64,000 bases of DNA from Alphaproteobacteria bacterium (GTDB lineage: Bacteria > Pseudomonadota > Alphaproteobacteria > UBA828): NCBI GenBank assembly GCA_965214705.1, contig OZ243972.1, positions 1 to 64,000 of the forward strand, written 5' to 3'. Under the pieces are notes generated by a model. That model saw only the letters and a program-made list of their open reading frames with translations. It made no database searches and was not told the DNA's origin. Each line of letters begins with the position of its first letter. The stretch's first letter is position 1. Positions 21,243 through 24,601 of the stretch are shown piece by piece. A program made the translations under genes and the position numbers.

Positions 21243-21296
21243 GCTTCATATTGCACCTCATTAGTCGGTTGGCACACGATGTTGGGGTTGAGCGCT

Positions 21297-23318
21297 CTAT
21301 ACGCGCTTTCGGCCTTGTTGCTTGGTCGGCGGGTTGTCGGGCATTTCATAGAGATAGCTGCCCTTGTCGTTGTAGACGTGTCCGCTCAGCAGCCCGATCT
21401 CGCGCCACTTCTTGATCGTCGTGGTCGAGACCGCGAGCCTGGTGGCCATTTCGTCGACGGTCAACAAGCCGCGGGCGCGCAGTCGGTCGTAGCGTGATTT
21501 AAGCTTGTAGTCGCCGCGGATTGCCTGCACGCGCAGCGCTCGAAAGGGGGCGCCATAGCCAGTCCGGCATCCCCGTTCATTGAGGATCGTTGCGATCTCG
21601 GCGTCGGTGTGATCGTCGAGTAGCTCGTCGATCTGGGCAATGACCTCGGGCGGGGTCTTGTAACGCTGCCACGCCGGCGCCTCGGGCTCGATGACGAGCT
21701 GGCGGGTGGCTCCGCCTCGAAGGCGCACTCCCAGGCGGAGATCCTTGCCCTTGACCAGGGTCACGTCCTCGATCAGCAATCGCGCGATCCGCTTGCGCTC
21801 GCGGTACGGCGTTGCAGGGTCGTTCCACAAGCGCGGAAAGTCCGTCGCCAGCGCGAGGACTCGTTGGCGTTGCTGCTCCCCGAGCTCGTGGCTCTGCTCG
21901 GCGCGGCGATGATCGAGATCGCGCTGTGCCTCGTCCAGAGCACGAAGCTTGGCGTTCCATTCCGCCTCCAGCACGTCGGCCACCATGCGGTTCTCGGGAT
22001 GGGTTTGCATGAAGCGCTGGCGCGCCAGATCAGCCTCTTCGCGGGCGCGCTGCACCTGCTGGGCACGCCAGGCGTCGACCTCTTCAGCACGCGCGGAAAG
22101 TTCGGCGTGTACCTCCAATGCCACTTGCAGCGCGACCGGCGTCATCAACTCGACCAGCAGTTCGCCGATTGCCCGGTCGATACCGGCACCGGCGATTTGC
22201 TGGCATATCCGGCTCGCCGTATCGATGCCTTCCCGCTGGCACATGTAGTCCGGCACCTGCCGCCCCCGGCGGGTGTGGTAGCGCACGGTCATGCGGTCGC
22301 CGCAAACCCCGCAGAGGGCCAGGCCCTGGAGCAGCGCCGGCCCTTCGCGTGGAGCGCTGCGCCGGGGCACGCCATAGGCCTGAGCGTTGTCCCGGAGCTG
22401 GCGCTGATTGGCCTCGAAGCGCTCCCAGGAGATATAGCCCGGGTGCGCGTCGGGGAGCAGCACGGTCCATTCCTCGCGCGCGAGCCGCTTCACTTCAACA
22501 CCGCCACCGGGACGCCGACGGTGGCAGTGGCGCCCGAACGCGAAGGCGCCGGCGTATCGTGGGTTGTGCAGCACCTCCAGCACCCGATAGAGCTTGAGCG
22601 GCTGCCAATGCAGCTCACCCTTGTGCGGTCCGCTGCGCGGCCGGCGGGGAAAGAGCAGTCCTTCGTCACGGAAGTGCTTCACCGTGGCGCAGGCCGTGCC
22701 GGTGCGGGTGAAGGTGTCGAAGAGCAGCCTGAGGCTGTGTTGAACCTGCGCATCGGGATCGAGAACCACACGATCGAGCGGGTCGTACACCAGCCCCAGT
22801 GGCAGCGGCATCTTCAACTCGCCGCGTTTGGCTCGATTGAGGATTCCGCCGCGCAGCCGGGCGCGCAGCAAATGGAGCTCCGCCTCCGACATCGTCCCTT
22901 TCAGCCCGAGCAGGAGCCTATCGTTGAAGTCGCCGGGATCGTAGACGCCGTCTTCATCGAGGATCAGCGTCTCGCTCAGGGCGCAGATCTCGACCAGCCG
23001 GCACCACTCGGTGGAGTTGCGCGCGAGCCTGGACACCTCGAGGCCGAGCACGATCCCGGCCCGACCCATGCCGACCTCGGCAACCAGATGCTTGAAGCCC
23101 TCACGGTCTCTGTCGGCGCCGGATAGCCCCTGATCGCTATCGATCACGACGATGCTCTCGGTCGGCCAGCCCAGAGCGACGGCCCGTTCGCGCAGGGCGT
23201 ACTGGCGGAGCGTGCTCTCGCCATTCTCGTACACCTGGCGCGGGGTGGACTGACGCACGTACAGATAGGCATGGCGGCTCAGGTGGCTCGTGCTCACCTT
23301 CTGATGGGCAGTACTCAT
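21297..23318 (-). CDS. Large serine recombinase (resolvase + recombinase + Zn ribbon)
   Basis: AYLYVRQST (catalytic S), [24 protein letters not shown] 23318 with RBS GGGGAG. Confidence 0.93.
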
Positions 23319-23608
23319 GCCAACTCCCCTTCCATGTGGACTTTGACCATCGCGAGAAGAATGTCGATCACCGGCCTCTCGACCCTGGCGGGCAGTGCCT
23401 TGGGCGACGCGCCCGCGCACACGCCGGCAGGCGCGGCGGGCAGCTCGGCGGACACGAACAGCCAGGCGGCGATGCCGCGCCGTACCATCACGGCGAGCCC
23501 CTGTCGGTCGAGCGGCGTGCCGGGCTCGAGCGCGTGGCGGCGCATCTGCTCGTAGCCCTGCGCATACGCCGAATGCGTCAACGGAAGCGCCAGCGGTGTC
23601 GGCGTCAT
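23315..23608 (-). CDS. Small hypothetical protein (Y4bB-like)
   Basis: YEQMRRHAL, GLAVMVRRGIAAW; ATGA-coupled on both sides. Confidence 0.75.
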   Translation of the reverse strand: MTPTPLALPLTHSAYAQGYEQMRRHALEPGTPLDRQGLAVMVRRGIAAWLFVSAELPAAPAGVCAGASPKALPARVERPVIDILLAMVKVHMEGELA

Positions 23609-24066
23609 GCGCGTTTTTTTCCCCGCGCGAGCGCGCGTTCGATGCTGCGGCGATGGACCCGCAGGCCGAAGCGCTCGCGCACGAGGTCGACCAGCTCGCG
23701 GGTGCTGAGTTCCGGCTGTTCGCTCTTTGCCGCGCGCAACGCCTCGACCACTTCGTCGCTGAGCTTGTGGGCTCGCCGGGGGCCGCGCCGGTGCGGCAAC
23801 AGCGCCGGCAGGCCGCCTGCCTCGAAGGCGAGCTGTGCCTGGTACCAGGTGGGCCGCGAGACGCCGAAGCTCGCAGCGGCACGGCTGATGGGCACGCCGT
23901 CTTCGCGCACACGGCGCAGCATCTCGTACTTGACCTGGAGCAGGTCGCGCGGATCGAAGAATGCGTTGGACAGGAACAGCTCGTCGCGAACCGCGTCGGG
24001 ACGCGGGTTCAGACAGCCATGCTGCTTGAGGGCATCGGTCTTTGCATCGGCTGAACGTCTGGCCAT
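23605..24066 (-). CDS. HTH protein (Y4bC-like)
   Basis: LNPRPDAV, FFDPRDLLQVKYEMLR, FGVSRPTWY, VHRRSIERAL; RBS GGAGG. Confidence 0.85.
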   Translation of the reverse strand: MARRSADAKTDALKQHGCLNPRPDAVRDELFLSNAFFDPRDLLQVKYEMLRRVREDGVPISRAAASFGVSRPTWYQAQLAFEAGGLPALLPHRRGPRRAHKLSDEVVEALRAAKSEQPELSTRELVDLVRERFGLRVHRRSIERALARGKKRA

Positions 24067-24247
24067 GGGGTGGCCTCCATCTGCAACGAATGTAAGGAAT
24101 ATTATGCCGCAATCATATGCGGTGTCAAGCTGGTCCTGCCTCAGTTCTTCTCGTGATCTGAAGAATCTGTATGAACAACGCCCGATATAGACAAGACAGT
24201 TTGCCGGAAAGGGGAAGGGCGCTCCAACGCATTGGGCAAAATATATC

Positions 24248-24601
24248 TTACACATGCGGCGTAATACTCTTTACAGTGCCGCTGCCACCGCCAGCGCTAC
24301 TCCCAAACAAACCATCCTCGTGCAGGCCATCCAACAGTGCAGCCAGAGCCAGCAGATCCGGAAGCCGAAAGGCCGAGCGACCAGACGCGACGATGACGAA
24401 GGGATCCTTGGCCCCAGCACTGGTCCACGCCGCTGTGAGGGAACGCACCACCCCGTCCCCGTCGACGTAATCCACCCGTTCTATCCCCCGGCACACCCGG
24501 CTCTGAAGAAGCTCGAACTCCCGTCCGTGGAGGGGATGAAACGGGTGCGTCACCCGAAAGGTTCGACCCTCATGCTGTGGATCGAGTGCAGTTGAATGCT
24601 T
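24248..24601 (-). CDS. DUF5372/Y4bD-like protein lacking its own ATG/RBS at the element end
   Basis: FRVTHPFHPLHGREF, AAWTS, GRSAFRLPDLLAL; frame is open up to the element end. Confidence 0.75.
   Translation of the reverse strand, partial: KHSTALDPQHEGRTFRVTHPFHPLHGREFELLQSRVCRGIERVDYVDGDGVVRSLTAAWTSAGAKDPFVIVASGRSAFRLPDLLALAALLDGLHEDGLFGSSAGGGSGTVKSITPHV

Follow-up and report, generated by a model that had tools for sequence, protein, structure and literature searches.

In the 64,000-nucleotide (nt) stretch of alphaproteobacterial DNA analysed here (the window, to whose full length all coordinates refer), we followed up an earlier note on positions 21243-24601, which had proposed that one gene of a mobile element becomes expressible when the element circularises. 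The element has a length of 3,373 bp and carries four co-oriented genes on the minus strand, between about 21.2 and 24.6 kb: in their order on that strand, a DUF5372-like open reading frame (ORF), a helix-turn-helix (HTH) protein, a small ORF and a large serine recombinase (LSR). The DUF5372 gene lies at one end without start signals, and the opposite end, just past the recombinase gene, carries a ribosome-binding site (RBS) and a start codon that face outward. Judged from sequence, the element is a four-gene operon that appears circularly permuted when integrated and would be moved by its LSR, and we consider it likely that DUF5372 is translated from the joined form of the element by way of the far-end start.

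Genes and ends of the element

The body of the DUF5372 gene (24248..24606, minus strand; stop codon 24250-24248) lacks a promoter, an RBS and a start codon. Its product matches Pfam PF17342 (E 4.9e-22; 78.2 bits against a cut-off of 25), with profile positions 1-77 of 78 aligned to residues 17-93, and its landmarks are the sequence F-R-V-T-H-P-F-H-P, which begins at 24559, and the codon of V17 within it, a GTG at 24553-24551. The HTH protein (153 aa; 23605..24066, minus strand) matches HTH_28/29/32, the type found in transposase N-termini, and is kept in relatives. The small ORF (97 aa; 23315..23608, minus strand) belongs to no family, and an ORF of similar size occupies the equal position in relatives; in a search of the ESM Atlas it had no match at all, and the DUF5372 ORF matched DUF5372 clusters only. 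The LSR (673 aa; 21297..23318, minus strand) combines a catalytic Resolvase domain (PF00239, E 3.5e-19), in which R22, Q23 and S24 are invariant in the alignment of 51 orthologues, with a Recombinase domain (PF07508, E 3.1e-13), a zinc ribbon (PF13408, E 5.1e-06) and a MerR-like C-terminal HTH; the Recombinase domain and zinc ribbon are likewise present in two relatives (L051 and L087). The HTH gene, the small ORF and the LSR gene are joined through ATGA overlaps, in which the start codon of the small ORF overlaps the stop of the HTH gene and that of the LSR gene overlaps the stop of the small ORF.

The genome contains three copies of the element that are 100% identical, one in the window (contig C1), one on contig C2 and one on contig C3, and the identity among them spans 21234 to 24610. 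In sequencing run X1, the Logan contigs break off at positions 21234 and 24608; runs X7 and X8 contain the uninterrupted site of a group II intron up to base 24607, and intact IS21 copies in the genome display the empty site as ...AACGAAAAAGG directly followed by GCGCGTCGAG. Because of these identity limits and empty sites, we place the ends 9 bp outside GCTT on each side; GCTT is indeed present at 21243 and 24598, where the earlier note had set the boundary and core, but the true ends lie further out. They read AAGG/GCTAC... and ...GGTCC/AAGG, with a central dinucleotide AA (TT on the gene strand) at 21234..21235 on the left, supported by the three-copy identity limit and a contig break, and at 24607..24608 on the right, supported by the three-copy comparison together with the contig break and empty site. 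AAGG is the only sequence that the element ends and both targets in the window have in common.

On the gene strand, the joined site consists of GTGCA, 34 nt and TGCAC, and is symmetric about the TT of CCTT, with arms at -22..-18 and +18..+22, instead of about a central GC with arms at 8 to 12 nt on either side, as had been assumed. The far-end (recombinase-distal) attachment (att) arm occupies 21236..21259 on the minus strand, reading outward from the element, and the near-end arm occupies 24586..24606 on the same strand, with its half-site TGCAC at 24590-24586; the near-end arm overlaps codons 6-13 of the joined ORF. A site of this form fits that of a serine recombinase with a 2-nt crossover, and attP sites of about 50 bp with 2-nt overhangs are described for large serine integrases in passages of PMC11722253. 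Across 100 related loci, the central dinucleotide is equal at both ends in 95, though it differs between lineages: among the 70 representatives introduced below it is TT in 56, TG in 5, CG in 3 and AT in 2, with four singletons, and the kinds found include TC, CT, AC and CA.

The reading frame across the joined ends

On the minus strand, the far end carries GAGG (21259-21256) followed, after 6 nt, by ATG (21249-21247), facing out of the element, with the half-site GTGCA at 21256-21252 and codons 2-5 (K R S P) at 21246-21235. This is the outward RBS and ATG that the earlier note had reported at minus 21259-21247, here read as GAGG-N6-ATG. Its description of the other end was also borne out: the DUF5372 ORF is open to and past the element edge, and no ATG, GTG or TTG occurs from the edge to the conserved F-R-V-T-H-P-F-H-P. 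In the computed junction, the far end supplies M-K-R-S-P, the crossover falls in codons 5/6, and the joined ORF comprises 124 aa. The true junction has 18 nt (6 codons) more than was assumed earlier, and the reading frame is therefore preserved, so that the in-frame joining proposed in the note stands and only its length of 118 aa has to be replaced.

Relatives were collected by a scan of genomes, with one genome per species, which found 540 of them and from which the best 80 were fetched, and by a scan of metagenome contigs, which found at least 559 and from which 80 were fetched. The near half-site was taken at a fixed distance from THPFHP and the far-end motif was sought 2-7.5 kb downstream; 121 copies were examined for both ends, and 3 genome and 39 metagenome loci were excluded as too short or cut. 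A far end was accepted at a score of at least 23 of 31, which 100 of the 121 copies reached at distances of 3.1-6 kb downstream, and these 100 copies yielded 76 distinct joined strings and, below 90% identity, 70 representatives. According to the record names, the hosts include Alpha-, Beta- and Gammaproteobacteria, Gemmatimonadota, Spirochaetia, Actinomycetota, Planctomycetota, Acidobacteriota, Chloroflexota, Myxococcota and Binatota. The four-gene architecture was present in all ten loci inspected, with DUF5372 accompanied by the LSR module each time (Pfam on ten of their ORFs). Across the DUF5372 family as a whole, cluster representatives number 2,329 at E≤0.001, of which 1,084 remain at E≤1e-10.

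A conserved far-end RBS and start codon, paired with a start-less DUF5372 gene, was found across the 70 representatives, as the earlier note had anticipated for homologous elements. The far-end start codon is ATG in 48 and GTG in 20 (68 together), CTG in one, and CAG followed by an in-frame GTG in another, and GAGG stands 6 nt ahead of it in 64 of the 70. The predicted junctions of these homologues, on whose frame the earlier note had let its proposal depend, are in frame: over the 24 codons ahead of THPFHP, the joined frame is free of stops in 69 of 70, the exception being L104, whose near end is shifted, and the other two frames of the junction are closed in 67 and 62 representatives (open in 3 and 8). 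Across the poorly conserved codons 13-21, a stop interrupts the joined frame in one representative and the other frames in 12 and 43, with shuffles predicting about 26%.

The two arms of the site are conserved unequally. On the far arm, both GAGGTGCA and the start-codon TG hold 1.6-2.0 bits of information; the GAG before the half-site holds 1.6-1.9 bits there and 0.4-0.9 bits at the mirror positions of the near arm, and the far arm has (A/G)TG where the near-arm mirror is TGA, the half-site GTGCA being common to both. Such a difference between the arms would be expected from a translation signal, and a purine preference of the enzyme is also possible. With the corrected ends, the comparison of 70 relatives supports the proposal that circularisation would give an RBS and a start codon to the start-less DUF5372 gene.

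Expression, predicted function and competing explanations

The only strong sigma-70-like promoter of the element is internal (24101..24128, minus strand; TTGACA-16-CATAAT, 11/12); placed after DUF5372 and ahead of the HTH gene, it points away from DUF5372. The promoter scan gave 2 overlapping matches at this one place, against a shuffle mean of 0.4, and relatives from several phyla have these hexamers at the equal place, where the best match scores at least 10/12 in 33 of 57. Inside the element, no promoter-like site was found upstream of DUF5372 and no terminator-like site was found anywhere, and the junction assembles no promoter either, with no sigma-70-like match of at least 8/12 within 160 nt on either side of its computed position. 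The integrated DUF5372 body is upstream of the only strong promoter and without start signals, and therefore no protein would be made from element-borne signals in that state. In the circle, the order would be promoter, HTH gene, small ORF, LSR gene, junction and DUF5372, which would therefore be the last and mostly coupled cistron. Counted from the far-end start, the stop codon of the LSR gene is at +8 in 28 of the 57 relatives, at +1 (an ATGA overlap) in 12 and at -4 in 5, thus abutting or overlapping the start in 45 of 57; it lies at -11 in 5 and between -17 and -52 in the remaining 7, and at -50 in the window.

The AlphaFold model of DUF5372 (27-row alignment; mean predicted local distance difference test score, pLDDT, 76.9) is a small SH3-like barrel with helices, whose first strand is placed at residues 14-17. 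Foldseek against the PDB gave weak matches to SH3/KOW-like barrels (eS4, NdhS, PsaE), and none of its 938 matches at E≤10 reached E≤0.001, so that this search gave DUF5372 no solved counterpart, either in sequence or, at a significant level, in fold. A complex of the LSR (51-row alignment) with DUF5372 (27 rows) was predicted in three runs and compared with three controls. The interaction prediction score from aligned errors (ipSAE) was 0.73-0.74 in the three runs versus 0.00 for the best control, a mark that, in the calibration of the tool, 58 of the 80 solved complexes attained and 2 of the 110 mismatched pairs; these counts apply only approximately, since we supplied alignments of our own. 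Contacts agreed by at least 61% among the runs, and the partner pLDDT was at least 66. The predicted interface, between LSR residues 335-340, 391-410, 479-515 and 520-538 and DUF5372 residues 19-24 (HPFHPL) and 66-93, joins the most conserved DUF5372 motifs to the LSR zinc ribbon and the base of the segment after it. Known directionality factors bind the zinc domain of their integrase and redirect its coiled coil, as described in parts of PMC5814800 and PMC11722253, and passages of PMC11795197 state that those of large serine integrases have no common fold. The controlled prediction suggests that DUF5372 may be a directionality-type cofactor of the LSR.

These observations can be arranged into a cycle. 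With the crossover inside codons 5/6, integration would leave the Shine-Dalgarno sequence, the start and five codons at the far end, just past the LSR gene, and the remaining 118 codons at the opposite end, ahead of the single strong promoter that the element has. The LSR would excise the element as a circle (or a head-to-tail tandem would arise), and the ends would join; transcripts from the internal promoter would then pass through the HTH gene, the small ORF, the LSR gene and the junction, yielding the 124-aa DUF5372 as last cistron, with its translation coupled to that of the LSR in most relatives. DUF5372 would bind the base of the LSR zinc ribbon and coiled coil, altering which site pairs recombine, most likely by licensing or locking in attP x attB integration, and that integration would split the DUF5372 gene again and reset the switch. 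The anatomy, the ends and their conservation are established by sequence; we infer that a circle forms, that transcripts cross the junction and that the far-end ATG is used for translation. Excision cannot depend on a protein that would be made only once the element is excised, and the economical reading is that DUF5372 licenses or locks the integration of the circle; we infer the sign of this effect and put the role forward tentatively, with the balance somewhat against it. Of similar standing, possible and rather less than probable, is the wider picture of a switch written in topology, in which the LSR, made in both states, can by itself only excise and a circle-only cofactor turns it into an integrase (an "inverse" recombination directionality factor that needs no regulator), combined with a guild of hyperparasites that use it.

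Several observations weigh against translation of DUF5372 from the joined form. No joint between the element ends occurs in the Logan contigs of X1, X5, X7 and X8, which, as contigs drop rare forms, says nothing either way; the lone joint listed in the contig comparison, from 22070 to 22299 in X7, is unrelated to the ends. Of 24 sequencing runs found, 23 that hold or possibly hold the stretch exist as Logan contigs only, and the one raw-read run, a Hi-C data set, is from another organism. In none of the 160 fetched loci (80 genome and 80 metagenome) does the far-end motif stand beside the near end, and a search with residues 1-40 of the ORF (15 matches among 16 candidates) returned no joined-type protein of the window's clade. 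In favour of the joined form, one of 197 gene calls does have an N-terminus of the joined type: P0041, from a metagenome and known as a gene call alone, begins with MKHAPS exactly 24 residues before THPFHP; the ends of element L092, which is 71% identical, predict its first seven residues for the joined form of L092. A further call, P0115, has an equal length and an unlike sequence, and the cluster of P0041 has three members, the others being an internal-start call and a target-gene fusion (P0053, with target sequence in place of MKHAPS). That DUF5372 would be made only from the circle rests on comparative anatomy, because no circle, junction read or protein was observed. The 70 representatives are related to one another, and their counts are non-independent events; the far-end motif overlaps the half-site and mostly the LSR stop, so that recombination and LSR coding constraints could explain part of its conservation and spacing; and with its LSR stop 50 nt from the ATG, the window has looser coupling than most relatives.

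The most direct alternative is that DUF5372 starts at the GTG of V17 and is made in both states, with the far-end GAGGTGCA-N2-ATG serving as a binding arm and the open frame as a by-product of spacing, and we regard this as decidedly unlikely. The V17 codon is GTG in 36 of the 70 representatives, including the window, where GAGGG stands 13 nt upstream, and some translation from it in the integrated state is possible; the Pfam profile also begins at V17, GTGCA is clearly a half-site common to both arms, and 36 of the 197 gene calls begin there (with the H of HPFHP at residue 3), the other starts being scattered, with this H at residue 5 in 16, at residue 12 in 11 and elsewhere in the rest. A common internal start, such as the GTG of FRV that the earlier note had considered, is nevertheless lacking in the homologues. 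The V17 codon is a non-start codon in 34 of 70 (GTA 14, GTC 13, GTT 4, ATC 2, ATT 1), with 0.3 bits at its third position; no in-frame ATG, GTG or TTG occurs from the crossover to the conserved motif (codons 7-22) in 54 of 70; and 26 of 70 have neither an upstream in-element start nor a start codon at V17. The two residues before V17 are conserved through synonymous codons, arginine at position 16 as CGG in 41, CGT in 10, CGC in 10 and CGA in 7, and position 15 as phenylalanine in TTC (25) or TTT (23), with valine or isoleucine in the remaining 22, and translation therefore starts upstream of them. Placement of the model's first strand across residues 14-17, the stop-free codons 13-21 in 69 of 70, conservation of the GAG before the half-site on the far arm only, and the missing promoter upstream of DUF5372 in the element likewise speak against a start at V17.

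Very improbable, in our view, is that the integrated ORF is translated from flanking signals as fusions to target genes and that the joining of the ends plays no part. Many copies have an ORF that stays open beyond the element edge, as in the window, where it extends as a 187-aa ORF from a TTG, and in the clade that targets IS91 the ORF continues in frame with the N-terminal coding part of the target (P0053, P0040, P0045, P0049), so that fusion proteins could be made there when the element is integrated. Against this, the commonest clade lies antisense to a DDE transposase gene, so that the flank gives no gene, the upstream frames meet stops at varied distances without a common start, and both the conserved far-end GAGG-N6-ATG and its proximity to the LSR stop would be left unexplained. 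A third explanation accepts the joined ORF and gives DUF5372 a task away from the recombinase, as a promoter repressor, a maintenance factor or a host-directed factor of the circle; it draws on the lack of a significant structural match for the SH3-like barrel and on the fact that a complex prediction is no measurement. It seems unlikely to us, less so than the other two, since in the prediction the most conserved motifs of DUF5372 contact the LSR region that known directionality factors bind, and DUF5372 accompanied the LSR module in every locus checked for architecture.

Targets, related systems and other copies

A total of 85 distinct empty sites were reconstructed from the relatives, and 51 of them are open on the strand opposite the element genes with a [VIL]ER or E[RS]x motif, for example N-G-K-V-E-R. 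Nine of ten antisense flanking ORFs tested match Pfam rve, each match ending at profile position 100-102 of 102, at the element boundary. Most members of the family thus lie antisense at N/K-G codons just ahead of the V/I-E-R of DDE (rve) transposases, and other clades lie in IS91-type (PWAELL..F/..DVL.CP.CGG), IS110-type (MESTGVYW) or HNH-like genes; judged by these flanks, the DUF5372 element family appears to home to conserved spots of other mobile-element genes. Insertion at one conserved spot of a transposase gene suggests conflict of element against element and, if the proposed cycle is true, the family, which occurs in at least ten phyla, would form a hyperparasite guild whose members inactivate other mobile elements by homing to the codons before the DDE catalytic glutamate or, in other clades, to IS91, IS110, HNH or integrase genes.

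One near parallel is a pair of clostridial transposons, Tn4451 and Tn4453, with the LSR TnpX, whose joined ends reportedly assemble the promoter of the recombinase in the excised circle, as Lyras and Rood are said to have described in 2000. The element in the window resembles them as a compact LSR transposon with an expression signal that would exist only once its ends join; it differs in that the junction would assemble the coding sequence (RBS, start and 5 codons with the gene body) of an accessory protein instead of a recombinase promoter, and further in that TnpX elements have no DUF5372 and the window's LSR has a MerR-like C-terminus. Junction promoters formed in the circle are also known from insertion sequences of the IS911/IS30 type. 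Circle-specific promoters of integrative elements, Pcirc of ICEclc and P3'end of ICEKp1, are described in part of PMC13023037. In all of these, as in the proposed cycle, joined or separated DNA ends decide the expression of recombination functions; the circle promoters, however, act on transcription of the recombinase, whereas here the translation start and ORF integrity of a cofactor would be at stake and the recombinase promoter is kept in both states.

In the "suicidal" integrases of the SSV type, the att site lies in the integrase's own gene and the circle alone encodes that gene whole, an arrangement likened to directionality-factor control in a section of a review (PMC8371274), which in that section calls self-disrupting recombinases exclusive to archaea. 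The element analysed here shares with them an att site inside one of its own genes, so that integration splits the gene; unlike these archaeal tyrosine recombinases, which split themselves, it would be a bacterial serine element whose recombinase stays intact and whose accessory gene is split five codons in. In the integration-dependent immunity of mycobacteriophage BPs, the repressor gene loses its 3' end on integration, which results in an active shorter protein. The attP of BPs and its relatives lies within a phage regulatory gene, according to passages of PMC4557955. In both cases, integration would change the product of the att-bearing gene, but here the 5' start signals are lost and no protein would be made when integrated. 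Like phiC31 gp3, SPbeta SprB and Bxb1 gp47, DUF5372 is a small protein with a predicted interface at the equivalent LSR region; unlike these known directionality factors, which are separate regulated genes made when excision is wanted, it would be makeable only after excision. Our literature search over roughly 8.4 million papers, with supplementary files outside its scope, returned no match for DUF5372 or PF17342, nor for circle-dependent start codons or split genes in this family; a paper on IS1111/IS110 had no bearing on it. What would be new here is a bacterial serine-recombinase transposon in which integration parts the start signals of an accessory gene from its body, with a gene product predicted to bind the recombinase at the region used by directionality factors.

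Serine recombinases of the transposon type must both excise and insert, and the control of direction without phage-style regulation is a standing question for which a circle-only cofactor, if the proposal is true, would provide an answer contained in the element itself, and four small genes with sites of about 50 bp would suffice to test it. It would also put compact recombinases with built-in state control on offer for genome engineering. For annotation, the true N-terminus of DUF5372 is probably encoded 3.3 kb away, and gene callers place its start inconsistently.

The flanks of the window copy are parts of two other mobile elements. To the left lies the 5' part of an IS21-type istA transposase gene (20493..21235, plus strand; Pfam HTH_23 and a weak rve match), which the element cuts at ...G-N-E-K-G, and to the right a group II intron reverse-transcriptase gene without its first codons (24609..25338, plus strand; Pfam RVT_1). 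The continuation of the istA 5' flank lies beside the C3 copy (RVERAIRYVRESF), whose opposite side is bordered by the start of the intron gene; because these reciprocal flanks bracket the C3 copy (C3:595839-601882), we conclude that an insertion in IS21 and another in the intron swapped flanks by recombination between copies. In the C3 copy, the recombinase gene is broken by a 2.66-kb IS91-like insertion (C3:597856-600515), which has a terminal hairpin and encodes a protein with the zinc-finger motif CEGCGREHP.... The C2 copy (C2:22169-25614, compared with 21205-24650 of the window) lies in the same chimeric IS21/intron context, and its right flank is only 87.6% identical to that of the window; an identical element in diverged flanks could be due to gene conversion, a mixture of strains in the assembly or repeated site-specific exchange. 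Two diverged paralogues of about 78% identity are also present in the genome (C1:1814340-1817711 and C3:588704-592225), both with broken recombinase frames and both at the 3' end of tyrosine-integrase genes, and these decayed copies retain the far-end GAGG-N6-ATG, a central TG and an in-frame joined ORF.

Some minor observations concern the annotation and variation of these elements. Eight of the 197 gene calls (P0015, P0032, P0098, P0108, P0126, P0147, P0150 and P0186) begin 3 codons after the joined-form start, with the H of HPFHP at residue 23, and several of them read M-x-W or M...STAP. Thirty plasmid records in RefSeq (Sinorhizobium, Streptomyces, Rhodococcus, Paraburkholderia and others) hold relatives under generic annotations ("DUF5372 family protein", "helix-turn-helix domain-containing protein", "recombinase family protein") and without an element name; in one of them (L171, plasmid pSS05631a, 179092-179355), the DUF5372 coding sequence is called from an internal start 13 codons past the start of the tblastn match. 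In runs X5 and X7, an 11-base insertion, CCCGATATAGA, follows position 24180, in the spacer between the DUF5372 and HTH genes and upstream of the internal promoter, and resembles a duplication of the neighbouring sequence.

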